Source of the DNA: Candidatus Lustribacter sp.
Lineage (GTDB): Bacteria > Vulcanimicrobiota > Vulcanimicrobiia > Vulcanimicrobiales > Vulcanimicrobiaceae
NCBI GenBank assembly: GCA_965277805.1
Contig: OZ255842.1
Span: 1,312,001-1,376,000 of the forward strand
DNA: 64,000 nt
Reading direction: 5' to 3'
Made by a program: the position numbers and the translations under genes. The notes beneath the pieces were generated by a model. The model made no database searches. It was not told the origin of the DNA and saw nothing but the letters and a program-made list of their open reading frames with translations. Below are positions 14,566-37,884 of the stretch, piece after piece (within the stretch, counting starts at the first letter, position 1; every line of letters begins with the position of its first letter).

Positions 14566-14699
14566 GCGCGATGACGAGCGGCGATCCACAGTATTCGCCG
14601 TTTACACATCGTCCACAGAAGTCTGGACCGGCTAGGCCCCACCCATCGTCCGAACCAACTCTACTGCAAACTCGTCTCTTCCCGGAGGACCCGCACATC

Positions 14700-17985: not shown

Positions 17986-18300
17986 ATGGATCCGTCCGCC
18001 CTGGTAAGGATCGGCTCCATCGTTGCCGTTCTGATCTTTCTCGATTTGCTGTTCGTCGAGCTGCGACGCATTTTCCGCGAAGGCAAACGCATCGTCGTGC
18101 GCCTCGCCGGATACGCCGACTTGCCGATCTTCGATCTCCTCGCCGCGAGCGAGCACGACATCAACCGCATCGTCACCGCGATCGACGCGCTCGCGTCGCT
18201 CGCTGACCGCACCCAAATCGCGCTCGAGTCGCTGCGCCGCGTTTATCGTCCGAAGGGTTCGTCGCCGGGCGGAGTGCCGAAGGGCGTGTCGCCGGGCTGA
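17986..18300 (+). CDS. Hypothetical single-TM protein
   Basis: N-terminal hydrophobic helix followed by a helical region; follows the FmdB gene; 3' end overlaps the convergent gene. Confidence 0.6.
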   Translation: MDPSALVRIGSIVAVLIFLDLLFVELRRIFREGKRIVVRLAGYADLPIFDLLAASEHDINRIVTAIDALASLADRTQIALESLRRVYRPKGSSPGGVPKGVSPG

Positions 18301-19595
18301 GCCTCGGGATGCCCCTCGGGCGGCTCCCAGTTCCATCCGAAGCCGGCCCGTTCTTCGGGATCGGGCGACAGGCCGAACGGATCCGGATCCTCCGGCAGCG
18401 CGAACGGTGTCCCGAGCGGTGACGGGCGTCCAGCCGGCGGCGGCACACCGAACGGCGCCGGGTCGGGCATGCCGAAGGCGGGCATTTGGCCCGGAGTGCT
18501 CGGCACCCCGAACGGTGCCGGTGTGGCCGGAGCCGGCGGCGGCGGTGCGAACGGCGCTGCCGGTTGCGGCGGCGCCGCCGGTTGGGCCGGTGCGGCCGGC
18601 GGCGGAGCGACCGCGGGCTGTGGCGGTGCCGCGGCCGGCGGTTGTGCGCCCGGCGGCGGCAGCACCGGCGGAAACTCGGCGCCGGGCATCGAGGCGGCGT
18701 AGGCCGGCGGCGGCGTGACCGGTGCCGGACCGGGGATCGGAGCCCCAGGCGGCGCGCCGGGTGCAGCCGGCGCTTTTGGTGCGACGGCTGCGGCTGCGGC
18801 GGCTGCTACCGCGGCGCGGCGCTGCTCGAGTTCCGCCATCTCGGCAGCCGTTTCTTCCCGGAAGAGCGTGCCGGCCGAGGCGCGCACCGGTTCGCCCGCG
18901 CCGAGCGCGACGAGCACGAAACGTGAGAGCGGCGAGAGCTGGGCCTCGGGGCTTTGCGCGAGCTCGCGCAGTTCGTCGAGATAGGCCTGCGGCATCTGTT
19001 CGACTTCCATCGCGTCGAGGATCAATCCGACCGTCTCTTCGACCGCGAAGCGCGGCGCCAAACGCGTGAACGTGAATTGCTGCATCAGCACGTCGGCTTT
19101 GACCATTGCGAGCAGCTTGCGCCAGTAGTCGATGGGCTTGTACTCTTCGAATGCGCCGGCTTCATATTTCGCGCGCGAATACAGCTCGGAGATGCGTTTA
19201 CCTAACGGATCGGAGGGCGGCGCGGGCTCGACGATGATGATGCGCTTGCCGACGCGCGCAAGTTCCCACACGATCTGCGTGTGGAACGTCGGATCGATTT
19301 CGTGCAAGTAATGGAACGCAACGATCGCATCGAAGCTGCTATCGCGCGCCGGAATCAGCGTGGTGCTGCCGCGCAAGGTGGGAATGCCGAGCGTTTCCAG
19401 TTCCGCGAGCTTCGCTGCATCCGATTCAATGACGCTGACGTCGACGCCGATCTCGATCGCGCGCTTCACCCACAGCCCGTCGTTCGCAAAGCCGCAGAAA
19501 AGAACGCGGTCGCCGCGTACGAGCGACATCGCGTCCCAGATGAGTTGGTCGATCCGGCGCGATTCGCGCAGAAACTCGGCAGCGTAATCCAGCAT
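18243..19595 (-). CDS. Class I SAM-methyltransferase-like domain with Pro-rich, PFG-repeat C-terminal tail
   Basis: SFDAIVAFHYLHEI...ELARVGKRIIIVE methyltransferase core; degenerate motif I (VLFCGFANDG). Start ATG 19595 chosen. Confidence 0.72.
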   Translation of the reverse strand: MLDYAAEFLRESRRIDQLIWDAMSLVRGDRVLFCGFANDGLWVKRAIEIGVDVSVIESDAAKLAELETLGIPTLRGSTTLIPARDSSFDAIVAFHYLHEIDPTFHTQIVWELARVGKRIIIVEPAPPSDPLGKRISELYSRAKYEAGAFEEYKPIDYWRKLLAMVKADVLMQQFTFTRLAPRFAVEETVGLILDAMEVEQMPQAYLDELRELAQSPEAQLSPLSRFVLVALGAGEPVRASAGTLFREETAAEMAELEQRRAAVAAAAAAAVAPKAPAAPGAPPGAPIPGPAPVTPPPAYAASMPGAEFPPVLPPPGAQPPAAAPPQPAVAPPPAAPAQPAAPPQPAAPFAPPPPAPATPAPFGVPSTPGQMPAFGMPDPAPFGVPPPAGRPSPLGTPFALPEDPDPFGLSPDPEERAGFGWNWEPPEGHPEAQPGDTPFGTPPGDEPFGR

Positions 19596-19666
19596 AGCAG
19601 CGCCAAACGGTTCGGCGGCCAAGAGAGCCCGCCCTCGGGTCGCGTGTAGGGTTAAGGTAAAAGCAG

Positions 19667-20053
19667 CTAGACGCCCGTCAGCCGGCGGCACCCCGGATCG
19701 GCACCAAATCTGTTCGGCCCGCGGGTCCCATCACTGCAATACCAAACGAGCAAAACGATTGCGCCCAGCACCGGTACGAGCCCCAACAGATACCACCAGC
19801 CCGTCCGGTTCACGTCGTGAAGTCTGCGTACGCTGACCGCCAGATGCGGCACTAACGTGCCGAAAACGACGATCGAATATAAGACGATCGCCAACGCGGG
19901 AAGCACGAGCATCGCAAAGTAGCTTACGACGCCTGCAAGCAAGATCGTAAGCGAGTGGAAGAGCGTAAAGTACCAATACTCTAAGCGTCGTGCGCGGCCG
20001 TCAAACGACGCGTATCGAGCCAATGACAGTCTGACCGCTTCGAAGAGGCTCAT
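19667..20053 (-). CDS. DUF805 (YhaH-like) membrane protein
   Basis: FDGRARRLEYWYF, VSVRRLHDVNRTGWW, GTRGPNRFGADP. Confidence 0.92.
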   Translation of the reverse strand: MSLFEAVRLSLARYASFDGRARRLEYWYFTLFHSLTILLAGVVSYFAMLVLPALAIVLYSIVVFGTLVPHLAVSVRRLHDVNRTGWWYLLGLVPVLGAIVLLVWYCSDGTRGPNRFGADPGCRRLTGV

Positions 20054-20143
20054 AGATCGCCACCACATTAGGCACCAAAGGCAGTCGGTTGCTTCGCCTA
20101 GATGGTACTCCGCCGGCAAGCCCCTTGTTTCAGGGATGGACGT

Positions 20144-20344
20144 TTAGCGGCGGCCCTGGCCCTCTTGCGGTGCAGATGACGCGGTAGCCCCGCGATCCGC
20201 TTCCGAGCGGCGTCGTCTTCGGAGAATCGCGCGCTGCGCGCGGCGCGTAGCCCACGACGTGAGGCGGTTCGGACAGTCGTCGCGATGATCGTGGTACGTG
20301 ATGCCGTCGCGCAAGGTAACAGTCGGGCAGTCGCAGGCGAACAT
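20144..20344 (-). CDS. Small Cys/His-containing protein (CxC...HxH...C)
   Basis: MFACDCP...YHDHRDDCP; GGGTAC element about 9 nt upstream of the ATG. Confidence 0.4.
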   Translation of the reverse strand: MFACDCPTVTLRDGITYHDHRDDCPNRLTSWATRRAQRAILRRRRRSEADRGATASSAPQEGQGRR

Positions 20345-20706
20345 ACGCGAAACGTACCCGCCGGTCGACGGGCCGGATCATGCGCATGTTCGGTGTGACA
20401 TCGCGCACCGTCGCGTGAGGCTTACCGCCCTGAATCGGGAACGTGCTGGACCACGAGCACGCCGTGGCTGCCAGCCGTAACGAGGTGTACGTCTTGTCGG
20501 AGGGTGCCAACGACCACTGCCGGCCCGTTGAAATCGTCAATATCTTCGATCTGCACGGGATCGCCTAGGCCGTCGTAGCCGTTCTCGTTGTCGGCGTATT
20601 TCTCCGAGCCGATATTGCCGAGGTCCATGTCCTGCTCGCAATTCGATAGCGGATTCATCCGGCGGCCGGTTGCACACTGTTTTCCCGGCGCAAGCTCTTT
20701 CGACAC

Positions 20707-20940
20707 TCAAAAGGGGCGAAGTGCGCTTGCGCGCACTCGCACGAAGCGCTGGCAGTTCGAACACTTGGGTACGTAGGTGTCGGCAACGACTTCGGCCGTG
20801 GCTTCAGCGAGATGGGCGCGGCAAGCGGTGACGATGACGCGGCCAGCCTGCACGCGGAGCGATTCTGACTATCGCTCACCGAGGTCGAGATGCGCGCGGC
20901 TGGAAGCCGCCCGGACCCAACGCGCGGGCGCCTTGGTCAT
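20707..20940 (-). pseudogene. Small Zn-finger-like gene with in-frame TAG; paralog of 21148..21444
   Basis: Manual translation MTKAPARWVRAASSRAHLDLGER*SESLRVQAGRVIVTACRAHLAEATAEVVADTYVPKCSNCQRFVRVRASALRPF*; TAG at 20871-20869; TTGTCC-N16-TAGACT promoter 5 nt before the ATG. Confidence 0.8.
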
Positions 20941-21147
20941 GGGCTAGTCTAGCTCGCCGGCCCGCGCGGACAAGTGTGACGGAGTGCCGTTTGTAACGTG
21001 ATCTTAGCGGCTACCAATCGGCGAGTGCGCGCATGCCACAGCCGAGGGCCCTTTCTGTCTTTTGGCTGTGAGCCGAACTAATGTGATCACACGCTAAGTT
21101 CCCGGTACAAATCAGCGAAGTGCGTCCGATCGGGGAAGACGTGGACA

Positions 21148-21444
21148 ATGACCACTTCGCTCCCACGCTGGGTCCGTGCCGCTACGGGCCGTGCTCACCT
21201 CGATCTCGGCGAACGGGCCGCTAAAAGTCTTCGCGTCCTATCCGAACACGTCATCGTGACGGCCTGCCGCGCACACGTCGACGCAAGAGCCGAGCCCGTG
21301 GCCGACAATCATCAGCCACTGTGCTCAAACTGCCAGCGCATCGCCCGCGTCCACGTAACACGACAGACTTCTGATATTTTTGGTGATCATCGGAGGCCGG
21401 CATCGCCGCCGGTGCGTGATCCTCTCGCGGAGAAAGGCCGGTAG
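21148..21444 (+). CDS. Small Zn-finger-like protein (H...C...CxxC)
   Basis: RWVRAATGRAHLDLGER...VIVTACRAH...LCSNCQR; conservation with the inverted paralog supports coding. Confidence 0.75.
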   Translation: MTTSLPRWVRAATGRAHLDLGERAAKSLRVLSEHVIVTACRAHVDARAEPVADNHQPLCSNCQRIARVHVTRQTSDIFGDHRRPASPPVRDPLAEKGR

Positions 21445-21508
21445 CGCGCGCGGCCTTGCGAGGATGCCTGGCGTCACCAACTGCGCTTATCGCCGTGCGC
21501 CGAGAACG

Positions 21509-21529
21509 TGGGGAAGGTGGGACTCGAAC
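21509..21529 (-). repeat. Direct repeat of the tRNA-Leu 3' end (distal att site)
   Basis: TGGGGAAGGTGGGACTCGAAC, identical to 24209-24229. Confidence 0.92.
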
Positions 21530-21666
21530 GCGCCCCTATAGGCGATAGTACAGCATGCTGGGGCCCTTCGCCGTACGCAACATGATAAGTTTTGACGAGC
21601 CAGGACGGCCGGCGGGTAGCAAACAGGTAGCCGGGATGACCCAATTCGACGTTCTTGCCCTGCCGC

Positions 21667-21912
21667 CTAAAAGAGCGGCCGATCGTTCATACCTGCTATG
21701 ACCTCACTCTTCAAGCCGAAGCGCTCACATGCCCGGCAACAGCCTCGCTAAAGTAGCTCTCAGCGTTGGGAGCGGATACTGCGCCAATTAGGTTTTCGGG
21801 CTCGATAGGAACCACGATTCCAGCAGCCTTTTTGTCTGAACGGCTCTATGTAGCGCCATATGTACGAGTCGTCGGATAGTTCTAGTGCCGCGCTCGGATG
21901 AGTCTTGTACCG
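21667..21912 (-). pseudogene. Internally deleted, frameshifted DUF2971-like remnant
   Basis: N-terminal YKTHP...DDSYIWRYI directly joined in other frames to C-terminal GIVVPIEPENLI...APNAESYFSEAV...ERFGLKSEVI...RPLF*. Family assigned from recalled motifs. Confidence 0.5.
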
Positions 21913-22039
21913 TCCGACTAAGCGTATTTTGTCAGGCAGGTAGGTTGCGAAAGGCATCGCTGGTCCGGCGTCAGGTCCAGAGCGATTGGACGAGTGTGCA
22001 TACCGCGACCGTCGACATTGTTCCGCGGACCCCATTGTT

Positions 22040-22230
22040 GGATTTCCCGAGAACTCGCGACACCTGAGCGGGGTTCCAGGGGCCCGGTTCTGGTGGTTTG
22101 CGCGTCTCTGTTAAGCTGTTTAGCGATAGCGGCTAGCGACACGGAATCTATGAGCTCGGCGATCGTCTGCGCTATGTGGCTGTATGCAGATACGGCGCCG
22201 GCACTTATGACGGCAGACGCGATGGCGCGC
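22040..22230 (-). pseudogene. Serine recombinase/resolvase C-terminal remnant, frameshifted
   Basis: SLAAIAKQLNRDAQTTRTG followed after a frameshift by PWNPAQVSRVL, the recombinase DNA-binding motif. Confidence 0.62.
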
Positions 22231-22259
22231 CCTCGCGCGGGCGACATTAAAGCCACCGG

Positions 22260-22757
22260 CTAAACTCGCGAGGTGGAAGGAGCTGGCCGCTTGCGATCGC
22301 GATACCATTTTTCGCTCTTCCCGTCGACAGCGCTTTGCAGTTCTCGGTATGCCGATCCAAGCTGGACTGCATTCGGCAATCCTAGAAGCGTAAACAGTCT
22401 GAGTGCGTACGGTGGGTGGATCCAGCCATCCCCATTGCATGCGTCTCGCACAGCTCTAGCGTTGCCCTGTGTAAGTTCCGGCGTGATGCGAGCGTCCAAC
22501 TCATCATCGCGCTGGCCCGCGATTTCCATTCCGACGTTCAGAAGAACGGCGAAACCTCTTCGAAAAAATTCGTCGGCCTCTGCTACTGCCGCTCCGAATT
22601 CTGGATCGTCACGTACTGATTTCACGGCGATGCCCCTCGCAACTGGTGCAGGACATGCCCTTAGCGATAACGCGTATAAATCCTCATCAGCCGACGACGA
22701 GGCGTCGATTCGTAGTCTGATCTGTACGGCAGCGCGGAACCGAATCGCAAGGTTCAT
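22260..22757 (-). CDS. Hypothetical protein (islet cargo)
   Basis: 165-aa ORF with globular composition and no recognised motif. Confidence 0.5.
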   Translation of the reverse strand: MNLAIRFRAAVQIRLRIDASSSADEDLYALSLRACPAPVARGIAVKSVRDDPEFGAAVAEADEFFRRGFAVLLNVGMEIAGQRDDELDARITPELTQGNARAVRDACNGDGWIHPPYALRLFTLLGLPNAVQLGSAYRELQSAVDGKSEKWYRDRKRPAPSTSRV

Positions 22758-23069
22758 CCGCCCGGTATTAGCCCTGGAGTATAACCAGCCAGGGAAGACC
22801 CGTATCGGGCGATCGCAACCTCCGCGTGCCGACGTCAGAGATTAGGCCGATTCGGACAGTTGCAAAAGAAGACCGCGTGCCAACCGATCGCGCCATCCCC
22901 GTCGCGTGGGTGCTAGTGTATGACGTTCATGACGCGGTGAGGGCGCTGCGTAGGTTGGCGAGCGGGGTCCTCAGAGGGGGTCATCGTGACAGACCACCCT
23001 TTGGGGTTCCAAATCGTAGCTGCAATTCGGTAAAGCTAGCGGCCGCAGTGTGGTCGGCGATTGTTGATA

Positions 23070-23738
23070 TTATTCCGGCGAGCTCCAGCGCAGGTCTGTG
23101 CATCCCTCCGCTAGTGCCTGCTCTACGACGCGCTCAGTAAGTAGCCGCTTCGAAGACAAATTCTTTCCGTAAGAGGCGATCACTGGAGATCTTTCGCGTG
23201 CCCTCTGCTTCGCCGTAGACTCGCTAAAGGCCATTACGATCACCGCGTCATCCCAGGTTACACGTTTACCGACTTTGTACGCGTATGGCGGCAAGGCGGA
23301 GGCTATTCGTGCCAAGGTAGCTTCGTCGATTGGTGAACGCCACGCGCAGGCACGAATCAGTTCATCCCATTGGTGACTAACCGTTTCGCGGTACATATTC
23401 AGCTCGGCACGTTCTCTGATATAGTATTGCTCTGCAAGTGCGAGGTTGTCCGGCCGAAGGAAGTAGTGCGTATCGAATTCATTGTCCGATACAAGCTCTA
23501 AAATCTCAACATGGAACGCACTCTCGCCGTCTACGCTGTAACGCGCAAACAATAGCGCGTCTCCGCTCTCTGGCAAACCCGCGCGCATTTTTCGAAAATG
23601 ATCGCGCAGCCGGCGCCCTATGTCTTTCGCCTCACCGACATATCGCTGCCCCGTGTCGGTATGCACAATGGCATATATGCCACTCTGGTCGATGAATTCG
23701 AGAGCTTGCTCCATCAGGCTGCGCTGCTCCATACTCAC
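23070..23738 (-). CDS. GIY-YIG nuclease family protein
   Basis: SGIYAI...RYVGEA...RRLRDHF...LAEQYYI...LN: GIY, YVG, catalytic Arg, Glu and Asn all present. Confidence 0.85.
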   Translation of the reverse strand: MSMEQRSLMEQALEFIDQSGIYAIVHTDTGQRYVGEAKDIGRRLRDHFRKMRAGLPESGDALLFARYSVDGESAFHVEILELVSDNEFDTHYFLRPDNLALAEQYYIRERAELNMYRETVSHQWDELIRACAWRSPIDEATLARIASALPPYAYKVGKRVTWDDAVIVMAFSESTAKQRARERSPVIASYGKNLSSKRLLTERVVEQALAEGCTDLRWSSPE

Positions 23739-24208
23739 TTTTAGTCCTCACGGGATGGAGAGACGCTGCAGTATTGGGTCCGCAATCTGCCCAAGACTTC
23801 GAGGCAGAGATCGCGCAGGAGCTAACCGTTAATCGTAAGGACGCCCCGCAAGGCACGAAATCGCCGCTTGAGGCGCGAAGCGTCTGGGATGCCCGCAGCC
23901 TAACACCGTCATCCAGAACCGATTCGAAATGCTCCTTGCTCGGGTCGTTCGCTGCTCCTTGGTAACGCGAATACTTTCGTCGAGCCCGACGTTCCGGGCA
24001 CCACGCGACAACGGTCCGGTACACTGAGCCTTGACGACCTCGGGCCGCCGTTACCCCGCGACTCGGATCATATGGTTCCCGCCGGCGGACGCAGATAACG
24101 CGCTTCCGAAGACCTGACGGACTTGTCAGACGACGAAGCGCTAGACATTGTGGCGGGTCTCAAGCCCTCCGAGAGGGGCAAGACGCCACGGAGTAAGGGT
24201 TATTTGAA

Positions 24209-24291
24209 TGGGGAAGGTGGGACTCGAACCCACATGAGCTCTCACTCGGCTGCTTTTGAGGCAGCTGCGTCTACCATTTCGCCACTTCCCC
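24209..24291 (-). tRNA. tRNA-Leu (CAA)
   Basis: GGGGAAG/CTTCCCC acceptor stem, GCTGC-CTCAAAA-GCAGC anticodon arm, long variable arm, GGTTCGAGTCC T-arm; CCA not encoded. Confidence 0.96.
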
Positions 24292-24336
24292 GGGCGCCTT
24301 GGGCGGTTCGCGGCTGACCGCTCGCACTCTTCTCGA

Positions 24337-25647
24337 TCAAACCATCGCGGTTTCGTGGCGTTCGACGACCTGGCGCACGATCTCCGCGTTCGGAACGCCA
24401 TCCGGCGCGACGACATCGAACGACAGCAACTCGCCGAACCGGTTCTGCGTGGCGTCGCGGACCAGGCCGATCGGTTCACGACCGGCCTTCAAGTCGTCGA
24501 TCGCTTTCAGCATCAAACGCCGAGCGGCGGCGATCGCGATGTCGCTCGTGGCGAGATGTTCCTTGGTGCGATTTTGGATGCGGCCGGGCGTTTCGGTTGC
24601 AAACGCGTCGTGCGTGTTGAAGTTAGTGCCCATCCCGGTGAAGTTTTCGTTCATCTTCGTGCGGTCTTGCATGAAGCGATTCGCTTGCGAGCGCGTGATG
24701 TGGTACTCATCGGAATACTCGCCCGGTTTGCGGAGGTGGTTGGGCAGACGGTGATCGTCGCTCAACGGTTGATCGCGGCGGACGAAGAAATTCCAGCGCC
24801 AGTGCGTTTGGTCGTCGATCGGCACGTGGAAGTGTCCGATTTGCCCGTCGCCGCCTTGCGGGCCCGCGATGACGGAGAAGTTCGGCATCCCGAAGTAGGT
24901 CACGCGCAAGTACTTGCGTCCCAGGCCCGCCGTGCGGTTCTGAAAGATGCGCACGCCGAACGCGGTGTCTTCCACTTCCAGGCGCGCGGGTTCGGCCGGA
25001 TTGATGTCGGCGAGCACCACGTCATCTTTCGCCATGCCCACCACGCGCAGCGCGCCGAAATTGAGTCCGGGACGACGGTTGGGATCGAATGATTTGTGCA
25101 AGAACCCCACGTGCGAGGGATCGTAGTTGCCCTCGTTCGCTTGCAAGTAGTTGCAGTCGATGAAGAGCTTGTGCACGTGGATGTTCGGTTCGGGATACGT
25201 GAAAAAATCGTAGTTCGGAAATACGGGCGGCTCGCCCGGGCCCATGTAGCAGAAGAACGCACCGGCACGTTCGACGACCGGATAGGATGTCTGGCGAATT
25301 TTGTCTTTGAACGTGCTCTCTTTCGGCTCTGCCGGCTGTTCGAGACATTTCCCGGTGACGTCGTAGAGCCAGCCGTGATAGAGACAACGCAGCCCGCCGT
25401 CTTCGAGCCGGCCGAACGAGAGATCGGTGCCGCGGTGACAGCAATGACGATCGAGCAAGCCGACGCGATGCTGCTGATCGCGGAAGAGCACGAGCTCTTC
25501 GCCGAGGATATCGACCGGCACCGGTGCGCCGCCGGCCGGCAATTCGCTTGAAAGCGCGATCGGCTGCCAGTACCGGCGCAAGAGTTCGCCGCCGGCGGTT
25601 CCCGGGTTGGTGCGCGTGAGCGCGTCGTTCTGTTCCTGCGTCAACAT
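24337..25647 (-). CDS. Rieske non-heme iron oxygenase (phthalate 4,5-dioxygenase/LigX-like)
   Basis: CCHRG...CLYHGW Rieske motif, EGNYDPSHVGFLH mononuclear-iron motif, EHLATSDIAI; GGAGG before ATG 25647. Confidence 0.92.
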   Translation of the reverse strand: MLTQEQNDALTRTNPGTAGGELLRRYWQPIALSSELPAGGAPVPVDILGEELVLFRDQQHRVGLLDRHCCHRGTDLSFGRLEDGGLRCLYHGWLYDVTGKCLEQPAEPKESTFKDKIRQTSYPVVERAGAFFCYMGPGEPPVFPNYDFFTYPEPNIHVHKLFIDCNYLQANEGNYDPSHVGFLHKSFDPNRRPGLNFGALRVVGMAKDDVVLADINPAEPARLEVEDTAFGVRIFQNRTAGLGRKYLRVTYFGMPNFSVIAGPQGGDGQIGHFHVPIDDQTHWRWNFFVRRDQPLSDDHRLPNHLRKPGEYSDEYHITRSQANRFMQDRTKMNENFTGMGTNFNTHDAFATETPGRIQNRTKEHLATSDIAIAAARRLMLKAIDDLKAGREPIGLVRDATQNRFGELLSFDVVAPDGVPNAEIVRQVVERHETAMV

Positions 25648-25715
25648 CGCTGCGATCCTCCGGCGGCTACGGGTAACGTGCTTATTGTTGCATGATTGAA
25701 CGACCTTCGCTGCGA

Positions 25716-28700
25716 TCACGCCGGCGCCGGATGCGCGGCTAACCACTGCCGTTCGGCCGTCGCTAAGGCTTGGGCGGCGGAAAGCCCGAGCGTGCGGGCG
25801 AGCGCGTAGGTGGTGCGGAGGGTACCCGATGATGCGACCAGCGCGAGCGTGCCGTTGCTGCCGTAGCGCGTCCAGGTCGCCTGCGCGACGGCTGCCGGCG
25901 CCCAACTCACGACGATCGTTTCGCGCGGAGTCCAGGCCATGAATGCCGGACTCGTCGTCACCGTTGCTGTTGCGGGAGCCTGAAGCGCCGATAGCGTGAC
26001 CGCACGCTGATCCGGTGCGGTCCCTTCGAAGCTCACGCGTTCGTCGACGATGAGTCGCGTCGCGCCGGCGGCGAGCCGCACGGTTTTCTCGAAGCGCGCA
26101 CCGCCGCCGAGGTCCGGCGCGTCGTAGGTGAAGCGTACGACGGCTTCCGCGCCCGTGGCGCGCACGATCTGCGTGCGATACGCGCGATTGAAGGTACCGG
26201 CGGGATAGGTGTGCGTGTACTTTGCGATGCGATCGGTCGTCGAAGGCGGCGGCGGCAGCAGCACGTCGTCGCGTAACGCACCGGTCGCGTTGACCGCGTT
26301 GTACGGCAACGCACTGCGCGCGGCGAAGACGATGAGCCGTGCGCCGCCGCCGGGAGCGAAGATCGCCACGATGCGATCGTTCGCGAGCGTCACCGTCCGG
26401 TCGCCGCTGCCGAATGCCGAACCCACGATGACACGCGCGACGCCGGGCACGACGGACGGCAGCGCCACGTGCACGGTTTGGCGCGCGTTGAGCGCCACCG
26501 AAGGTTCGTTCGCGCGCGCCGGGTTCGGACCGCGCATGGGCAGCGTGCCCGTTGCCGGCGGCGCGCTGCCGCCGAGCACGATCAGACGCGCGTCGCGCGG
26601 CGCCACGGTAAACGGCGGCACGTCGAAGGAACCGATGCCGGTCCACGTGACGCCGCCGAAGCGGCGGGGCGAGTTCGACCAGTTTGCCGCGACCCCGAAG
26701 GTGGCGTCGGGTCCGGCTAACACGGCGATGCCGCTGCCGAGTTGGTTCGGTACTTGCGCGCGAATCGCGATCCGCAGTTGCGCCAGGCTCCGTAGCCGCG
26801 CCGCGATTGCGGGCAGCGGCGGACGAACGAACGGCGGGACCACGATCGTGCGATATCGCCGCAGGCGCGCATCGCTCGAGAAGCGCAAGTCGACGACGTC
26901 GCAGGTGAGGCCGCGCGTGTTGCACGTGCGCAGCGCCGCCTTCAATTCGGCCGCGATCGCGCCGATGTCGTCGTTGGAAAGCGCCGCCGGATCGGACGCG
27001 CTGACTTCGTCGGCGATCGCGATCGTTGCGACCCGATGCGTCGCGGCCAGCAACGCACCGTATCGCCGGACCTCGTCACCGAAACGTTGGGTCGGTGCCC
27101 AGCGGGCCGGACGGCTGCGCAGCAACGCGTCGGGGTCGCGCGGAATCGCTGCGTCCCAACTGTAGAAGGCATTGGAGAACGGCGCTTCCCAGCCGAACGG
27201 CGCGAGCGTGTCTTGCAGCGGAAAGTCGACCACGCCGTGCACGCCCCAGCTCAGCATTTCGGCCAGTGCCAGCGTGGTGTTCGACGGATCGGCCGGACGC
27301 GGCAGCGGATCTTCGGGCGAGGCGAGCCAGCCGGCTTGAAACTCGCTCGACGCCGGGGGCACGCGTTCTTGCGTCGTCAACGTCGCCGTTGCGAAATCGA
27401 GTTCGACGCGATCGTGATCGCCGATCGAGTAGGCGTCGCTCTGGTACCAGTTGCCCATCGCCCACACGGGCGACGCCGCCGGCACTTTCATATCGTAGGT
27501 GTTGATGAACGTCGGCACGACGGGGCCTGTCACGCTGCGCACCTGCGTATCGAGCCAATGCAGATATGCTTGAAAATGCGGCGCGGGCCAGGTCTGATTG
27601 TCGATGTAGGCGCCCTGATCGTCGTCCAGCGCCACCGCGATCACGAGATCCGCGTACGGCACGAACTCCGCCAGCGCGTGATGCAGCCAGCGCGCCGCAT
27701 AATAGCGATGGGTTGCGTTGCGCATCCACTCTGCGGCTGCATCGTCGCTGTGCGCGTTTTGCAGCGTGGCGGTGGCGGGATAGCGCCCTTCGAGGATGTC
27801 GTGCAGCGGCATCCCGTACGCGGGCCGGCGCAGGAGCCACGCCGGATAGCCGCCGTTACGCCACTCGTTGCGAATCACGGGGCCCGGCCGCACGATCAGG
27901 TGAAAGTGCAGCTCGCGCGCCAACTGCAGCACCCGGCGCAGATTGCGGCGCGGGTTCGTATGGCCGTCGAAGTCGAATTTGCCGTCGGATGTTTCGTGCC
28001 AGTTCCACGGCACGTAGAGGTCGAGGGTGTTGGCGCCGGCGGCGCGCATGGCGACCATCGAGTCGCGCCAGCGTTCGGGCGGAATGCGTTCGTAGAAGAA
28101 CGCGCCGCCGAAAAAGAAGAACGGCTTGCCATCGACGAGCAGCTGCGGCGTGCCGTCGCGCTGCACGACGCGCGCGTGCGTGAACGTCGCCGCTTCGGCG
28201 CCGCGCGGTACGGTCGCGAACGCCAGAAGCAGCAGCGCGGCGGCGATCGCGAAGGGCCAGGTCGCTCGCACGCGCGCGCGGATCAGAAAGATCACTGCGC
28301 CCGCGGCCAGCGTCGCGGTGCCGAAGGCCATCGCGATTAGCCCCGAGCTCCAGAAGAGAAAGAACCAGGCGGCGAGCGCGACGATGACCGGCAACGGGTA
28401 GAGCGGCAGACGATATGGCGCCGGCTCGGCGCGCATGCGCAGCACCATAACCGCGAGGTTCCCGCCGACGCCCTGTACCAGCACGAGCCCGGCCGTGAGC
28501 GCGTTGATCACCGCGTCCAGCGGAAAGAGCGTGGCCGGCAACGCCAAGAGCCCCAGCGCGAGCAGCGAGATGTGCGGAAAGCGTTTCGTCGCGTGCAGCC
28601 GCGCGAAGGGCGCCAGGAAATCGCCGTCGCAGGCGGCGGCGTACGGCACGCGCGAGGCGCCGAGCAAACCGCCGTATACTGAAGCAAAGCAGGTGACGAG

Positions 28701-29558
28701 GATCGTTACCGTGATGACGACGGCGGCCGCATGTCCGGCAGTTCGCTCCACAGCTTGCGAGGCGACGAAGGTCGAGTGTGCGACCTCGCTGAGCGAGAGC
28801 GCGGAGAAGACGCCGAGGTTCAGCGCGACATAGGCCACTCCGGTGATGAGGATCGAGATGACGACGGCGAGCGGAATCGTGCGGACCGGCGCGATGACTT
28901 CGTCGCCGATTTGCGGCACGCTCTGGTATCCGGCATAGTCGTAGAGGGTGTAGACCATCGCGGCACCGAGCGCAACGACGTTCAGACCGCGCAGCGAAAA
29001 GGCCGGCGCGAGCAGCGCTCCCACCGGTTGCGTGGGGTGGAAGAACCCGCACGCGGCGATTGCAACCAACGTGAGTACGGCGATCGCGCTGAGCGCGAGC
29101 GCGGTGCGGGCGATGTGCGGAATCTTCTGGTAAAGCGCCCAGAGCGTGACGACGCCGACGCCGAGCGCGACGGCGTGCGCGGCGATGGGCTGGGCCAACA
29201 CGGGAACGAGATAGGCCGCGTACTGCGCGAAGCCGATGTATCCGCTCGCGATCGACAGCGGCAGCGCGAAGAGGTACTGCCAGACGAATATGAAGGCGAC
29301 GATGCGTCCCGGTCCGTGCGCGCCGAAGGCTTCGCGCAGATAGGCGTAGGTGCCGCCGCTACGCGGAAAGCGCGACGCGAGCTCGGCATAGCACAAGCCG
29401 TCGCACAGCGCCACGAGGGCGCCGGCGATCCACGGCCAGATCGTGATCGAGCCGTGCATCGCCGCGACGACGAGCGGGATCGTGATCAGCGGTCCCGCGC
29501 CGACGATCGTCGCGACGTTGATCGCGACGGCGCTGCGCAGCCCGACCCCGCGGATCAA
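25716..29558 (-). CDS. APC amino-acid permease fused to a GH35/GH42-like glycoside hydrolase
   Basis: Residues 1-~430 are an APC permease (IVGAGP, YAELASRFPRSGGTYAYL, YAGY). Then a signal-like helix, then GH35 motifs YVPWNWHE, RPGPVIRNEWRNGGYPAWL, SEFQAGW. Confidence 0.88.
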   Translation of the reverse strand: MIRGVGLRSAVAINVATIVGAGPLITIPLVVAAMHGSITIWPWIAGALVALCDGLCYAELASRFPRSGGTYAYLREAFGAHGPGRIVAFIFVWQYLFALPLSIASGYIGFAQYAAYLVPVLAQPIAAHAVALGVGVVTLWALYQKIPHIARTALALSAIAVLTLVAIAACGFFHPTQPVGALLAPAFSLRGLNVVALGAAMVYTLYDYAGYQSVPQIGDEVIAPVRTIPLAVVISILITGVAYVALNLGVFSALSLSEVAHSTFVASQAVERTAGHAAAVVITVTILVTCFASVYGGLLGASRVPYAAACDGDFLAPFARLHATKRFPHISLLALGLLALPATLFPLDAVINALTAGLVLVQGVGGNLAVMVLRMRAEPAPYRLPLYPLPVIVALAAWFFLFWSSGLIAMAFGTATLAAGAVIFLIRARVRATWPFAIAAALLLLAFATVPRGAEAATFTHARVVQRDGTPQLLVDGKPFFFFGGAFFYERIPPERWRDSMVAMRAAGANTLDLYVPWNWHETSDGKFDFDGHTNPRRNLRRVLQLARELHFHLIVRPGPVIRNEWRNGGYPAWLLRRPAYGMPLHDILEGRYPATATLQNAHSDDAAAEWMRNATHRYYAARWLHHALAEFVPYADLVIAVALDDDQGAYIDNQTWPAPHFQAYLHWLDTQVRSVTGPVVPTFINTYDMKVPAASPVWAMGNWYQSDAYSIGDHDRVELDFATATLTTQERVPPASSEFQAGWLASPEDPLPRPADPSNTTLALAEMLSWGVHGVVDFPLQDTLAPFGWEAPFSNAFYSWDAAIPRDPDALLRSRPARWAPTQRFGDEVRRYGALLAATHRVATIAIADEVSASDPAALSNDDIGAIAAELKAALRTCNTRGLTCDVVDLRFSSDARLRRYRTIVVPPFVRPPLPAIAARLRSLAQLRIAIRAQVPNQLGSGIAVLAGPDATFGVAANWSNSPRRFGGVTWTGIGSFDVPPFTVAPRDARLIVLGGSAPPATGTLPMRGPNPARANEPSVALNARQTVHVALPSVVPGVARVIVGSAFGSGDRTVTLANDRIVAIFAPGGGARLIVFAARSALPYNAVNATGALRDDVLLPPPPSTTDRIAKYTHTYPAGTFNRAYRTQIVRATGAEAVVRFTYDAPDLGGGARFEKTVRLAAGATRLIVDERVSFEGTAPDQRAVTLSALQAPATATVTTSPAFMAWTPRETIVVSWAPAAVAQATWTRYGSNGTLALVASSGTLRTTYALARTLGLSAAQALATAERQWLAAHPAPA

Positions 29559-31465
29559 GCGGTCAATCCGAACACGTCACGATAGAATTGCAGCTCGCGC
29601 TCGAGCACCCGTACGATCGTCTCGGCCTTACGGAAGCCGTGGCCTTCGCCTTCGAACGCTTCGTAGACGACCGGCACGTTGCGCGCGATCAACGCGTCGC
29701 GCATCGCGGTCGCTTGATTGGGCGGCACGACGCGATCGTCCAGGCCCTGGAAGAGCAGCACCGGCACGTCGATCGTCGCCACGTGGTTCACCGGGGAGCG
29801 CTCGCGATAGCGCTCGAGCGTTTGCGGCAACGGGCCGACCAACCCGTCGGTGTAACGCGCTTCGAACTTGTGCGTGTCGGCGGCCAGCGCTTCGAGCTCC
29901 ATCACGCCGTACAGGCTGACCGCGGCCGCGAAGACGTCCGATGTGGCGACGGCGAGCAGCGCGGTCATGCCGCTGGCGCTGCCGCCGCGAATCGCGATTT
30001 GCGCGGGATTACAGCGGCCGCTCTCTGCCAGCGAGCGTGCCACGTTGATGCAGTCGCGGACGTCGATCTCGCCCCATGCGCCGGCGAGCCGTCCGCGGTA
30101 GGTGCGTCCGAAGCCCGAGGAGCCGCGGTAATTGACGTGCGCGACCGCAAAGCCGCGCGAGGTGTAAAATTGAATCCCAATGTTGAACGCGTTGGTGTGC
30201 ATCGAGGTCGGCCCGCCGTGGCTCATCACGATCAGCGGGGGCCGCTCGCCCGCCGGACCTGCGTAGCGCGCGTTTCGTGGCGGATAGAAGAACGCGTGCA
30301 CGTCTTCCCCGTCATCGGAGCGAACCGTCAGCGCTTCGCCGATGCTCACGCCGTCAGCCTCGAGAACTTGCGCGCTCGCCGCACGCACGACGGTGTGCGA
30401 CGGATCGCCGATCTTCGGCGCGTAGCACACGGCGGCCGGCGCGTCCGGCGGTGCCGCGAGATAGACCGCGCCGTCGCGAAAGGGCAGCGGCGTGGTGTCG
30501 ACGGGGCCGTACGGCAATTCGCGCACGGTTCCGGACGCGATCAAACCGGGGTGCACGCTCCCGTCGCGCACGTAGGCGCATAGCACGCGCGCATCGTCGA
30601 GCGGCGCGATCATCGCGCGGCCGAACACCCACGGCGGTTCGGCAAACTCCGCCGCCAGCGGCGCGAGCGCGTCGATGCGGTCGCCGTGCAGCGCGTAGAC
30701 ATTCCACCAGTTCGTGCGGTCGGAGGTGAAGAGCAGCGTTCCGTCCGGCGTCCACGCCGCGGCCACGATCGCTTCGCCGCCGCCTTCACCCGCGACGCAG
30801 CGCGTTTCGCTCGAGCTGCCGTCCCGCGCCACGCGGGCGACGTAGAGCCGCGTCGCATCCCACGGCATGCCGGGGTGATTCCAGGCGATCCAGGCCAGCT
30901 TCGTTCCGTCGGGCGAGAGCTGCGGCGCGAGCACGAAGTCGGTTCCGCCGGCGACGATGGTACCCGCGTTCGCTGCGGCTTCGACACCGCCGGCCATCGA
31001 GAAGACGACGATTGCGTTGTCGGGCGCGGTCGGCGGACGGTCGCGGTGATCTTCGCGCACCGCGTAGACCCGTTCGCTCGCGACGTCGATCGCGAACCCG
31101 GCGTAGCGGCAGCCCGGCACCGCGATCAGGGCCCGCGGCTTGCGCCCGGCCTCGGCGAGCCACACGCTGCCGTCACTGCGCTCCGAGTACACGACCCGGC
31201 CGTCGCGCACGGCGTATGCTCCGCCGCCGTACTCGTGCACGCGATCGCCCACGTCGGCGGACGGGGGCAGCACGTCGTGGGGCGGATGGCCGGGTGACCA
31301 GCGCACGAGCGCTCGGCGGCCTCGCTCCGCCGGACGCAGCTCGAGCCAGGTCACGGTGTCGCCGTCGACGGCGAGTTCCGAGAACGCGAGGGTCGCACCG
31401 GAGACCAGCTGCGGGGTCACCGTTGAGTCCCACATCCCGAAGCGCGCGACGGTCGTACCTTCCAT
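29555..31465 (-). CDS. S9 family (prolyl oligopeptidase/acylaminoacyl) peptidase
   Basis: HGGPT, NYRGSSGFG, GGSASG nucleophile, DDRVV, GEGHGFR; start ATG 31465. Confidence 0.93.
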   Translation of the reverse strand: MEGTTVARFGMWDSTVTPQLVSGATLAFSELAVDGDTVTWLELRPAERGRRALVRWSPGHPPHDVLPPSADVGDRVHEYGGGAYAVRDGRVVYSERSDGSVWLAEAGRKPRALIAVPGCRYAGFAIDVASERVYAVREDHRDRPPTAPDNAIVVFSMAGGVEAAANAGTIVAGGTDFVLAPQLSPDGTKLAWIAWNHPGMPWDATRLYVARVARDGSSSETRCVAGEGGGEAIVAAAWTPDGTLLFTSDRTNWWNVYALHGDRIDALAPLAAEFAEPPWVFGRAMIAPLDDARVLCAYVRDGSVHPGLIASGTVRELPYGPVDTTPLPFRDGAVYLAAPPDAPAAVCYAPKIGDPSHTVVRAASAQVLEADGVSIGEALTVRSDDGEDVHAFFYPPRNARYAGPAGERPPLIVMSHGGPTSMHTNAFNIGIQFYTSRGFAVAHVNYRGSSGFGRTYRGRLAGAWGEIDVRDCINVARSLAESGRCNPAQIAIRGGSASGMTALLAVATSDVFAAAVSLYGVMELEALAADTHKFEARYTDGLVGPLPQTLERYRERSPVNHVATIDVPVLLFQGLDDRVVPPNQATAMRDALIARNVPVVYEAFEGEGHGFRKAETIVRVLERELQFYRDVFGLTA

Positions 31466-31483
31466 GCGCCGGTCTTTGCCGGT

Positions 31484-31510
31484 GGAACTGCTCCGCTCCG
31501 CCTCGCGTTG
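31484..31510 (+). promoter_or_regulatory. ECF-sigma-type promoter GGAAC-N17-CGTT upstream of the M16 peptidase
   Basis: GGAAC 31484-31488 and CGTTG 31506-31510, 8 nt before the GTG start. Confidence 0.5.
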
Positions 31511-31518
31511 AGGCTGGT

Positions 31519-34179
31519 GTGACATCTTCGTTTCGCCGTCTGTTTGCCTGCGTTGCCGCGCTGACGCTTCTGGCCGTGCCGCTGACCGCGTCATCGCAAG
31601 ATACCGCCGGCGGGGTCAACATCGCGCACGCGACGCTCTCAAACGGGCTGCAGGTCTACGTGCTGCAAGACCGCCTCTCGCCGGTCGTCTCGATGTACAC
31701 GAACTACCTGACGGGCGCTAACGACGAGCCGATCACGGGCCTCGCCCACGCGCAAGAGCACATGATGTTCCGCGGCAGCAAGACGATCGACGCATCGCAG
31801 TTCTCCGATACCACTGCGATCACCGGCGGATCGTACAACGCCGATACGCAGAACGAGATCACGCAATATTTCTTCGAGATGCCCGCGCAGTATCTCGACA
31901 TAGCGCTCAACCTCGAACGTTCGCGCGCGACCGGCATCCTCGATGCGCAGAGCGGCTGGGACGCCGAACGCGGCGCGATCACGCAGGAAGTCGTGCGCGA
32001 CAATTCCGGCGCCTCGTACCGGCTCTACGTGCAGATGATCCACCACATCCTCGCCGGCACGCCGTACGCCGACGAAGGTCTCGGCACGGTCGACACGTTC
32101 AAGAAAATCCAAGCGCCCGACCTCAAACGTTTTTATGCGCGCTGGTACCATCCCAACAACGTGATCATGGTGATCGCCGGCGACGTCGATCCGCAAACGA
32201 CGATCGCCAAAGTGCGGTCGCTCTTCGGCTCGATTCCGGCGGCGCCGCTACCGCCGCGCAAGAGCGTGCACTTGCAACCGCTCACGCCGGTCACGCTGCG
32301 CGACAACAGCTCGGATGACATCACGCTCGCGATGGTCGGTTACCGCGTTCCCGGCTACGACGATCCCGATTACTACGCATCCGAAATTCTCAACGACGTG
32401 CTCAACAGCCCGCGCGGCGCGCTCTATGCCTTACAGGCCACGGGAAAATCGCTCGGAACGTTCGCGCAGGCGTCGACCCATCCGGGCGCCGGTATGTCGC
32501 TCGTCGGTTCCGCGGTTCCGGTAACGACGCCGGGCGACACCGCGGTAGCCGACGTCAAAGCCGTGATCGACGCCTACAAACAGAGCGGCTTGCCGCCCGA
32601 ACTCGTTGCCGTGGCGAAGGCGCGCGAACTCGCGCAAGCGCAATCTGCGAGCAACTCGATCAACGGTCTCGCGCAACTGTGGAGCCAAGAGCTGGCGGTC
32701 GAACACCGCACGCCGGATGACGAACTCGCGGGGCTCCAAAAAGTCAGCGTCGACGACGTCAATCGCGTCCTGCGGAAGTATTACGACAACGCCACGGCCA
32801 CGGTCGCGGTCGCGACGCCGAAGGCGGCGTCGGGGTCGGCATTCGGCGGCCGCGAAGGCGAGGACAACAGCGTTCCACCGACCGCGCATACCGCGCTTCC
32901 GGCGTTCGCTCGCAACGTGCTCGCACAACTGCACGTTCCCCAATCCGCCGTGCATCCGACGCAGCAAACGCTGCCCAACGGCATCAACCTGATCACCGTG
33001 CAGAGTTCGATCTCGCCGACGGTCGTGCTGCGCGGTGAAATCCGCAGCAATGCCGACGTGCAGGCGCCCCCGGGCAAAGACGGCGTCGACGACATCCTCA
33101 ACGGACTCTTTCAATACGGCACGACGACCTACGATCGCATCGCGTATCAGACCGAACTCGATAAGATCGCGGCCGACGTGAGCGCCGGCAGCGCCTTCAG
33201 TCTCAACGTGCTGGCGAAGGATTTCGATCGCGGCGTGACGCTGCTCGCCGATGACGAACTGCATCCTGCGCTGCCGGCCGATGCGTTCGCGATCGTCAAA
33301 GCGCAAGCGGTCGGCCAGCTCACCGGGTCCGTGCAAAGCCCGGATTTCAAGGCCCGGCGTGCGCTGGCCAATGCGCTCTATCCGGCCGGCGATCCCGCGC
33401 GCCGCCAGGCGACGCCCGACACCGCCGGCACCGTGACGCTCGACGACGTGAAGAATTACTACGCGTCGACGTTCCGGCCCGATATCACGACGATCGTGGT
33501 CGTCGGTGACGTGACGCCGGAACACGCGCGCGCGACGGTGCAAGCGGCGTTCGGCGGCTGGACGGCCAGCGGTCCCCCGCCGGATGTCTATCCGCCGGCC
33601 ATCCCGCGCAACGCGCCCTCGCAGGCCATGATCCCGGCGACCGGACGCATTCAGTCCGACGTAACGCTGGCTCAAACGCTGCCGCTTACCTATAACGATC
33701 CGGACTATCCGGTGCTTCAGCTCGCGAACGCCGCGCTGAGCGGCGGTTTCGGCTCCCTGCTCTATCACGATGTCCGCGAAGTGCACGGCTATGCCTACTC
33801 CGTCTCCACGTCGGTTGCGGGCGGCCATAACCGCTCGACGTTCCGGGTGAACTTCGGGGCGTATCCGCAGAACGCGGACCGTGCCAAACAGCTGATCGTT
33901 ACGGATCTCGCATCACTGCAAAAGAAAGACTTGCCCGCGGACCGGCTCATCCGGGCGAAGGCGCTGCTGATCGGCGAATTGCCGGTGCGCAGCGAATCGT
34001 ACGACGGGGTGGCGAGTACGCTGCTCGCGTATGCGGTCACCGGCCGCCCGCTGGATACGGATCGGCGCTACGCGCAAACGGAACTCGCCGCATCGGCGGG
34101 CGCCGTGCGAGCCGCGATGGCCAAGTGGATTCGCCCGCAAGGCTTTGCCGTCGTCACCCAGGGACCGGCAGGCCGCTAA
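31519..34179 (+). CDS. M16 family zinc peptidase (pitrilysin-like), secreted
   Basis: Signal peptide, GLAHAQEHMMFRGS (HxxEH), two-lobed repeat, C-terminal VREVHGYAY. Confidence 0.93.
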   Translation: MTSSFRRLFACVAALTLLAVPLTASSQDTAGGVNIAHATLSNGLQVYVLQDRLSPVVSMYTNYLTGANDEPITGLAHAQEHMMFRGSKTIDASQFSDTTAITGGSYNADTQNEITQYFFEMPAQYLDIALNLERSRATGILDAQSGWDAERGAITQEVVRDNSGASYRLYVQMIHHILAGTPYADEGLGTVDTFKKIQAPDLKRFYARWYHPNNVIMVIAGDVDPQTTIAKVRSLFGSIPAAPLPPRKSVHLQPLTPVTLRDNSSDDITLAMVGYRVPGYDDPDYYASEILNDVLNSPRGALYALQATGKSLGTFAQASTHPGAGMSLVGSAVPVTTPGDTAVADVKAVIDAYKQSGLPPELVAVAKARELAQAQSASNSINGLAQLWSQELAVEHRTPDDELAGLQKVSVDDVNRVLRKYYDNATATVAVATPKAASGSAFGGREGEDNSVPPTAHTALPAFARNVLAQLHVPQSAVHPTQQTLPNGINLITVQSSISPTVVLRGEIRSNADVQAPPGKDGVDDILNGLFQYGTTTYDRIAYQTELDKIAADVSAGSAFSLNVLAKDFDRGVTLLADDELHPALPADAFAIVKAQAVGQLTGSVQSPDFKARRALANALYPAGDPARRQATPDTAGTVTLDDVKNYYASTFRPDITTIVVVGDVTPEHARATVQAAFGGWTASGPPPDVYPPAIPRNAPSQAMIPATGRIQSDVTLAQTLPLTYNDPDYPVLQLANAALSGGFGSLLYHDVREVHGYAYSVSTSVAGGHNRSTFRVNFGAYPQNADRAKQLIVTDLASLQKKDLPADRLIRAKALLIGELPVRSESYDGVASTLLAYAVTGRPLDTDRRYAQTELAASAGAVRAAMAKWIRPQGFAVVTQGPAGR

Positions 34180-35287: not shown

Positions 35288-35743
35288 ATGGTAAAGCTGA
35301 CGGTTAATGGTACTGATCACGTTTTAGATGTTCCGGATGAGATGCCGCTCTTGTGGGCCGTTCGTGACGTCGTCGGGCTGACGGGCACGAAGTTCGGCTG
35401 CGGCATCGCAGCCTGCGGCGCGTGCACGATGCACGTCGACGGCGCGGCGGTGCGCACGTGCGTGCTGCCGGTGAAAAACGCCGTCGGCAAAAAGATCACG
35501 ACGATCGAAGGCCTCGCTCCGGTCGACAAACCGCATCCGGTGCAAGCCGCGTGGGTCGCGCAGAACGTGCCGCAGTGCGGTTACTGTCAGTCGGGCCAGA
35601 TCATGGCCGCGGCCGCGCTGATCGAGAAGAAGCCGCATCCGACCGATGCGGACATCGACGTTGCGATGACCAATATTTGCCGCTGCGGCTGCTACCCGCG
35701 CATCAAGTCCGCGATCAAAGCCGCCGCCGCGAGCATTGCATGA
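35288..35743 (+). CDS. (2Fe-2S) small subunit of isoquinoline 1-oxidoreductase/xanthine dehydrogenase family (IorA-like)
   Basis: [30 protein letters not shown]. Confidence 0.93.
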
Positions 35744-37872: not shown

Positions 37873-37884
37873 ACCGGCAATCGC

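Follow-up and report, generated by a model that had tools for sequence, protein, structure and literature searches.

The window analysed here, a 64,000-nucleotide stretch of the genome of Candidatus Lustribacter sp., contains on its reverse strand a gene in which a permease of the APC superfamily runs, within a single open reading frame (ORF) and through a linker resembling a Sec-type signal peptide, into an enzyme of glycoside hydrolase family 35 (GH35) (Table 1). The translation is free of stops over its 1280 amino acids, and the start codon overlaps with the stop codon (TGA) of the preceding ORF (gcTTGAtcc). An earlier note, made from the nucleotide letters, had described this frame as uninterrupted, and every string quoted there is present, namely RARVRATWPF, AIAAALLLLAFA, AEA-A, HTNPRRNL, EWRNGG, and ALDDDQG. 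The host genome, a single contig of 5.53 Mb, has one copy of the enzyme.

Table 1. Positions of the fused gene, its parts, and the adjoining peptidase gene in the window. Residue numbers refer to the fused protein.
Feature	Position (nt)	Strand	Basis
Whole fused gene, 1280 codons plus stop, TTG start	25716..29558	(-)	ORF listing, translation
APC/LAT-type permease core, residues 1-427, 12 transmembrane helices	28278..29558	(-)	Pfam, hydropathy scan, family profile
Basic cytoplasmic loop R427-T433 (RARVRAT), putative signal-peptide n-region	28260..28280	(-)	Column counts, 121 sequences
In-frame GTG, codon 430, proposed internal start	28269..28271	(-)	Present here; column not conserved
13th helix / h-region W434-V450, WPF kept, core variable	28209..28259	(-)	Column counts, core lengths
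c-region P451-A456 (PRGAEA); predicted signal peptidase I cut A456/A457, between nt 28191 and 28190	28191..28208	(-)	Column counts
GH35 (beta/alpha)8 barrel, residues 457-841	27036..28190	(-)	Pfam GH35, AF2 model, nearest structures
Invariant D645-D646-D647, end of predicted strand beta4	27618..27626	(-)	Alignments, AF2, motif series
Invariant E739, SEFQAGW motif, predicted strand beta7, predicted nucleophile	27342..27344	(-)	Alignments, AF2
Second (alpha/beta, GlmA-type) and third (beta) domains, residues 842-1006	26541..27035	(-)	VIA alignments, PF22369 on relatives
C-terminal tail, residues 1007-1280, galactose-mutarotase-like beta-supersandwich	25719..26540	(-)	AF2, Foldseek, invariant columns
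Upstream S9 (prolyl oligopeptidase family) peptidase gene, start/stop-coupled, no signal peptide	29555..31594	(-)	Sequence, neighbour comparison

Conservation of the fused gene

The junction between the two halves is supported both by assembled reads and by relatives. In two sequencing runs of one sample, possibly the one from which the window DNA was obtained, a contig of 1384 nt covers nucleotides 27900-28600 of the window with 0 differing letters and 0 gaps. In two further runs, X3 (DNA) and X4 (metatranscriptome), only diverged fragments were found, and none of the listed pieces spans the junction stretch.

A search with the whole protein yielded 775 matches, and 116 of the best 120 have both the permease and the GH35 Pfam domains; these two-domain homologues are mostly about 1250-1440 amino acids long, with identity down to 50%. 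The source names of the homologues include Candidatus Eremiobacteraeota, Baltobacteraceae, Elarobacter, and Velthaea, and two partial entries among the best 120 are labelled Acidoferrum and Dongiaceae. In the ESM Atlas, a cluster of 97 members labelled Vulcanimicrobiota has the identical domain set. The enzyme domain occurs in 278 of 401 genomes of the phylum (12 unpublished genomes included), 275 of them among the 296 genomes of the window's own family; outside this family, the 401 genomes gave two weak matches only (E 1e-18 and 1e-20).

Open-frame length proved an unreliable sign of fusion, as four of the 14 unfused loci described below (L020, L022, L026, L027) show frames of 1094-1367 amino acids, and therefore fusion was scored with a query of 270 residues (287-556) straddling the junction. 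This query matches 290 of 301 family genomes, and among the matches listed, the junction is crossed without a stop in 150 out of 150 cases from at least 147 genomes and 38 genus codes (14 of the genomes tallied are unpublished; unpublished genomes account for eight of the 150 rows, and 139 genomes remain without those rows). The possibility raised in the earlier note, that all relatives encode the two halves separately and the frame is a strain-specific read-through, is thus contradicted by the relatives themselves. Since the same uninterrupted junction recurs in at least 147 genomes, it is not a product of chance, and the permease-glycosidase frame is a genuine gene fusion.

Permease, linker, and glycosidase

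The N-terminal half matches Pfam AA_permease_2 (PF13520) at residues 6-412 with 103.4 bits (cut-off 27), and the hydropathy scan shows 12 helices and, after the basic loop RARVRAT, a further hydrophobic stretch, the 13th, at 432-450. Positions 3-427 of the family profile align with residues 42-468 of xCT (E 2e-45), so that helices 1-12 of xCT and LAT1 are covered. The best solved relatives of the permease are the SLC7 light chains, namely, xCT, LAT1 (E 1e-34), and b0,+AT, together with the bacterial structure 6f2g. At the same time, the curated LAT subfamily model TIGR00911 gives 112 bits against a cut-off of 701.8, and thus by sequence the permease is a relative of the LAT subfamily, not a curated member. 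In APC-fold transporters such as xCT and LAT1, the C-terminus is cytoplasmic. As the permease aligns with helices 1-12 of these transporters, the 13th helix is predicted to cross the membrane from inside to outside, which would place the enzyme outside the inner membrane.

The conservation of the linker was assessed by column counts in an alignment of 121 sequences. In the n-region, R427 is kept in 103 sequences, A428 in 114, and R429 in 100, and the commonest residue of column 432 is Arg (101). The start of helix 13 is conserved as well (W434 in 113, P435 in 117, F436 in 113), while the hydrophobic core that follows is variable. The residues of the putative cleavage site, P451 at position -6, A454 at -3, and A456 at -1, are retained in 103, 100, and 100 sequences, respectively; position -2 is free, its four commonest residues being Ser (23), Gly (17), Ala (17), and Arg (14). 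At position +1, the four commonest states are Ala (66), Gln (25), a gap (8), and Thr (4), Pro not being among them. The core after WP, as read from the sequences, comprises 13-19 residues in 16 fused loci; in the N-terminal signal peptides of 13 out of 14 unfused loci, the corresponding length is 11-20 residues. Hence all features of a Sec signal peptide are found, i.e., a basic n-region, a short h-region, a helix breaker at -6, small residues at -3 and -1, and no Pro at +1, which bears out the internal signal proposed in the earlier note; the call is based on column counts and core lengths. Taken together, the columns appear as a textbook signal peptidase I site under selection.

The enzyme half is recognized by Pfam Glyco_hydro_35 (PF01301) at residues 472-579 (113.4 bits, cut-off 27), with positions 1-104 of the 319 profile positions only. 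The best PDB sequence matches are 5gsm (GlmA_Tk), 8oug, and 5gsl, then 6jow, then the transferase 7vkw, and they cover only the first 106 or so residues. The AlphaFold2 (AF2) model of the C-terminal 824 residues, based on an alignment of 69 rows, has a predicted local distance difference test (pLDDT) value of 90.9 and a predicted template modelling score (pTM) of 0.92. When this model was compared with known structures, four GlmA structures led the Foldseek results (E 2e-24 to 3e-21), and VIA-align placed 5gsl first (Z 35.6, root-mean-square deviation 3.0, 480 aligned residues), with 5gsm (Z 34.6, 493 aligned residues) among its leading hits; the transferase and the classical GH35 galactosidases are nearly level, at Z 34.1 and about 33, respectively, and GH35 entries fill the top ranks at Z 30-36. 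The archaeal GlmA enzymes, with the best or tied-best structures, align over 473-493 residues through the barrel, the second domain, and part of the third, and in VIA-align only GlmA, the transferase, and GH42-type entries align through model residue 540-550 or so. The second domain had been called GH42-like in the earlier note; the Pfam GH42 match, however, sits in the barrel (488-578), and GLMA_2nd (PF22369) is found on the relatives, so that this domain is better described as GlmA-type.

Both the GH35 barrel fold and a Glu in the nucleophile position of strand beta7 are seen in the AF2 model and the alignment. E739 is invariant and falls into the predicted strand beta7 at 281-284 of the mature numbering, as judged by alignment and DSSP position only; Y515 and E565, further positions of subsite -1 and the catalytic site, are invariant too. 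The acid/base region differs from that of the characterized enzymes: where GH35 proteins have Glu (as Asn-Glu, or Asp-Glu in GlmA), the alignment shows D645-D646-D647, a triplet without variation in either set of aligned sequences (66 and 69) and located at the end of strand beta4 (183-189 of the mature numbering in AF2). An Asp immediately before the acid/base position (D646) is shared with GlmA_Tk. According to a review, the acid/base residue of that enzyme is E179 and the nucleophile is E347; the C2 amino group is bound by D178, and activity is lost in the D178N mutant (PMC6566704). The glucose-acting transferase IaSGT is described as having Asn at the place of D178 (PMC8861115).

GlmA-type enzymes are thus the nearest relatives, in line with the suggestion of the earlier note that the enzyme is nearer to GlmA-type exo-beta-glucosaminidases than to classical beta-galactosidases: both the nearest sequences and the nearest structures are of this type, and the acid/base region reads DDD, not ENE. 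Nevertheless, several differences set the family apart. The acid/base position is occupied by Asp instead of Glu; the predicted nucleophile lies in a classical GH35 SEFxxGW motif approximately 92 residues after the acid/base position, while GlmA uses E347; R563 stands, as read from the alignment, where GlmA has Cys101; and the present proteins are bacterial, putatively exported, fused to a permease, and end with a mutarotase-like supersandwich. The best NCBIfam model for the enzyme, the GlmA equivalog NF041127, is matched with 112.8 bits against a cut-off of 1500, at positions 9-114 of 782. As the acid/base Glu is absent and the equivalog score lies far below its cut-off, the enzyme is best filed, by its sequence features, as a distinct GH35 subgroup characterized by an Asp-Asp-Asp motif, i.e., a relative of GlmA and not a GlmA. 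A similar relation holds for IaSGT, a beta-1,2-glucosyltransferase of Ignavibacterium album from GH35 (7vkw), which shares the three-domain layout (Z 30-34 over 466-474 residues) and belongs to the same GlmA-near branch of GH35, but has N175-E176 and lacks a signal peptide (PMC8861115), in contrast to the D-D pair and predicted export of the present family.

Among 1.84 billion representative proteins scanned, 134 match at E <= 1e-30; these were sorted by motif. The core family, comprising fused and free copies, has RNE / DDDQ / EF. In the second tier, at 38-46% identity, DDDQ is combined with LNE or CAE in unfused proteins of 1082-1538 amino acids, with one cluster named Candidatus Acidoferrales. 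Further out, DDEQ, DNEQ, and ENEY are found, and the DDEQ proteins are GlmA-type with GLMA_2nd and GLMA_C domains (one cluster is named Bathyarchaeota).

The enzyme is probably a retaining exo-beta-glycosidase, whose nucleophile would be E739. A 2-amino sugar at subsite -1 would be favoured because D646 is aligned with the C2-amino-binding D178 of GlmA_Tk; given that this concerns one aligned residue, we regard the amino-sugar preference as tentative and somewhat less probable than its absence.

The tail has its own invariant polar residues. Its last 270 residues were folded separately by AF2 with pLDDT 92.5, and weak Foldseek matches (E 2e-6 to 1e-3, template modelling score about 0.5) connect it with the C-terminal domains of GH38 mannosidases, with a 4-alpha-glucanotransferase, and with aldose epimerases. 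In addition, residues 1093-1127 of the tail (about 26178-26282 of the window) form a conserved polar stretch, ATGALRDDVL.QPPPS.TDRIA.YTHSYPAGTFNR, in which G, R, D, S, D, I, T, P, G, R, and Y do not vary among 50 sequences, which suggests that the tail has another binding or catalytic site.

Interpretation of the fusion

The enzyme is encoded not only in the fused form. Among the best 30 loci, 16 have an in-frame upstream permease; the remaining 14 lack one within 1.5 kb. Thirteen of these unfused copies start with an ordinary N-terminal signal peptide, located where the fused form has helix 13, and the fourteenth, L022, shows no clear hydrophobic run. The catalytic positions are equally conserved in the free secreted copies. 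Hence the linker segment appears to work as a signal peptide in both the fused and the unfused context.

We consider the fused gene most probably to encode a two-protein precursor (with a rough probability of 0.6), taking up as the best reading an option from the earlier note, a polyprotein split by signal peptidase I. The permease would insert co-translationally with 12 helices and its C-terminus in the cytoplasm; the next 30 residues would then act as a Sec-type signal, inserting with the N-terminus inside and the C-terminus outside, and carry the GH35 enzyme of 824 residues across the inner membrane. Cleavage by signal peptidase I after A454-E-A456 would yield a 13-helix permease in the membrane and a soluble glycosidase starting with ATFTHAR in the periplasm. 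Export is suggested by the logic of the topology and by the behaviour of the unfused copies, and cleavage by the conservation of the linker. A cultured member of the family is reported to have an inner membrane, thin peptidoglycan, and an outer membrane with lipopolysaccharide (PMC9758169), and with such a Gram-negative envelope the freed enzyme would stay in the periplasm.

Several findings weigh against parts of this reading. The conserved A-x-A could in part be a relic of an ancestral signal peptide in an Ala-rich linker, and helix 13, which opens with the invariant WPF, may have a structural role in the permease. As to the enzyme, the characterized GH35 proteins compared have Glu where D647 stands, so that the chemistry may differ or the activity may be weak; the GlmA model is matched far below its cut-off. 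The functional coupling of the two halves also appears weak. When a maximum-likelihood tree was built from the first 480 enzyme residues, fused and unfused copies came out interleaved, with eight changes by parsimony, at least six of them forced by well-supported branches. Four out of five genomes with an unfused enzyme have a standalone permease (48-54% identity), which lies on a different contig or at a distance of 1.5 Mb; the fifth genome is 72% complete. Three out of five high-quality genomes that lack the enzyme keep a permease with 43-50% identity, and two have none.

From the interleaving tree, the unlinked permeases, and the enzyme-less genomes it follows that the link between permease and enzyme has been made or broken repeatedly, and that the two activities are not obligatorily coupled. 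The earlier note had envisaged an outward-facing glycosidase feeding its product to its own transporter; the same three observations speak against this proposal, and we regard a hand-over of the product to the permease as doubtful. Some details hint at repeated fission: three of five standalone permeases end with ...RAR..WPF plus a few residues (WPFA/E), and two unfused enzymes lie at the syntenic site of the fused genes, beside the same divergent esterase gene. As the tree covers 30 rows out of several hundred copies and is unrooted, with a midpoint root for drawing, no direction of evolution is claimed.

Among the other explanations, the one that fares best is a tethered ectoenzyme, in which helix 13 is an uncleaved signal anchor and the glycosidase remains attached to the outer face of the permease, where, by analogy, it could release its product beside the transport pathway or serve as an ancillary ectodomain similar to SLC3. 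This would fit the relationship of the permease with the SLC7 light chains and the bacterial 6f2g. The light chains are paired in heteromeric amino acid transporters (HATs) with type II heavy chains, which have one N-in helix and an ectodomain of glycosidase fold (PMC8537225), and helix 13 with the enzyme is predicted to be oriented in the same way. Also, about half of the searched family genomes retain the fusion, so that some advantage over separate genes has to be assumed, and the WPF with which helix 13 begins is almost invariant. On the other hand, Pro at -6 and Ala at -3 and -1 around a free position -2 are characteristic of a cleavage site rather than an anchor; the core of 13-19 residues is as short as that in the cleavable signal peptides of the unfused copies; and many sister genomes have unfused enzymes unlinked to the permease. 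A complex prediction for permease residues 1-456 with enzyme residues 457-936 gave a score of 0.00, which speaks neither for nor against binding. On balance, we consider the tethered form unlikely.

The resemblance to HATs (SLC7 LAT with SLC3 4F2hc or rBAT) lies in a 12-helix LAT-type permease combined with an additional N-in/C-out helix that bears a large ectodomain of glycosidase fold. The ectodomain here, however, belongs to GH35 instead of GH13, the connection is a peptide bond instead of a disulfide, and the linker looks cleavable; moreover, catalytic residues are conserved, whereas SLC3 ectodomains are described as lacking shown activity (PMC8537225). A HAT is defined by a separate GH13-type SLC3 chain and a disulfide link (PMC8537225), neither of which the fused protein has; the resemblance is one of analogy, not of ectodomain homology. 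A more specific version, in which the glycosidase stays on, or re-docks onto, the LAT permease as a bacterial counterpart of the HAT design with a live enzyme, cutting an amino-bearing periplasmic glyco-conjugate and passing the product to the transporter, appears quite improbable.

It may also be supposed that hydrolase activity has been lost and that the GH35-like domain is a module for binding, sensing, or a chaperone function. The replacement of ENE/DDE by DDD at the acid/base site in all family members, the restriction of the Pfam GH35 match to the first third or so of the profile (1-104/319), and the precedents of 4F2hc and rBAT, whose glycosidase folds are without shown activity (PMC8537225), would agree with this. 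However, Y515, E565, E739 (SEFxxGW), and D645-D647 are invariant, and equally so in the free secreted copies, and an Asp acid/base residue has been reported for the GH2 exo-glucosaminidase CsxA (PMC6566704); we thus find a non-catalytic domain improbable, more so than tethering.

Finally, an artefact, a strain-specific read-through, or synthesis of the enzyme mainly from the GTG at 28271, the separate start suggested in the earlier note, is very improbable: although this GTG immediately precedes the hydrophobic core and would give a normal-looking signal peptide, the commonest residue in its column is Arg (39 of the 121 sequences; Val 18, Ile 17, Leu 11), three other fused loci inspected have no start-type codon between helix 12 and WPF, and the artefact is rejected by the junction being open in at least 147 genomes and in the contigs of both runs.

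Neighbouring genes and meaning for the family

The gene neighbourhood was compared across 18 related loci. The S9 peptidase gene lies upstream in one of them, the locus from the same genus. In the other 17 (L037-L053), including both unfused loci, the gene directly upstream is divergent and encodes a PF00756 "putative esterase," which is absent from the window; in the window's genus, this esterase neighbour is replaced by the S9 peptidase, and an M16 peptidase is on the opposite strand. Genes for cystathionine beta-synthase (CBS) and cystathionine lyase are found further upstream in 14 of the 18 loci, CofD is also recurrent, and the recurrent downstream genes encode FtsZ, an M20 peptidase, and a methyltransferase-like protein. 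The neighbours are read as conserved chromosome backbone rather than as an operon that would name the substrate.

Several further observations concern these neighbours. In the same 14 loci, PALP plus CBS domains and Cys/Met domains of pyridoxal phosphate (PLP) enzymes are encoded on the strand of the fused gene, approximately 2.5 kb upstream of it (e.g., L053:11989-14346); in L053 and L044 they are in one open frame (785 amino acids in L053), and this frame may represent either a CBS-cystathionine lyase fusion or two genes that ORF calling has joined. In the window, approximately 6 kb (19700-25700) separate the methyltransferase-like gene (18243-19691) from the end of the fused gene, with G+C below the 0.66-0.72 of the fused gene (0.53-0.63 over 23000-25700) and with short ORFs that have no Pfam matches, except a GIY-YIG ORF (23070-23738). 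As the same two genes are about 0.1-1 kb apart in L037, L042, L048, and L051, this segment looks like a genome-specific insertion. The FtsZ ORF (13854-15773) has 639 amino acids, with the tubulin/FtsZ GTPase domain starting at residue 297 and no Pfam match in the N-terminal 290 or so residues; L051 aligns over all 639 amino acids in one frame, while others match as two separate parts, so that the ORF either includes a long N-terminal extension that is conserved or has been called too long. On the other side of the fused gene, two adjacent ORFs (35422-40008; 816 and 707 amino acids) each have molybdopterin cofactor-binding domains of the xanthine dehydrogenase/aldehyde oxidase type, and both are also found in the genome from the same genus (L036).

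The arrangement of the fused gene is new and conserved, while its parts, an APC permease, a Sec signal, and a GH35 enzyme, are known. No description of the permease plus GH35 layout was found in the literature searched (supplementary files were outside the search), nor any paper naming both AA_permease_2 and Glyco_hydro_35, and the search of the Eremiobacterota literature returned nothing on this protein. A precedent in design is FbcH, the cytochrome b/c1 precursor of Bradyrhizobium japonicum, where a polytopic membrane protein, a signal-like segment, and an exported protein form one chain that is split by processing; it was not found in the literature searched. FbcH differs in its cargo and in that both its products belong to one complex.

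Thus, in this family a polytopic transporter and an enzyme predicted to be exported are made as one chain, joined by an apparently working cleavage site and kept across more than 30 genus codes, and the enzyme represents a candidate GH35 subgroup defined by an Asp-Asp-Asp catalytic motif. Because the family has a cultured member, bench tests are possible. If the chain is indeed cleaved, it would provide a widespread bacterial example of a single gene that yields two proteins via an internal signal peptide, and a natural system for studying how Sec and signal peptidase handle a signal that follows 12 helices; if it stays uncleaved, it would be a prokaryotic parallel to the animal LAT transporters paired with partners of glycosidase fold.

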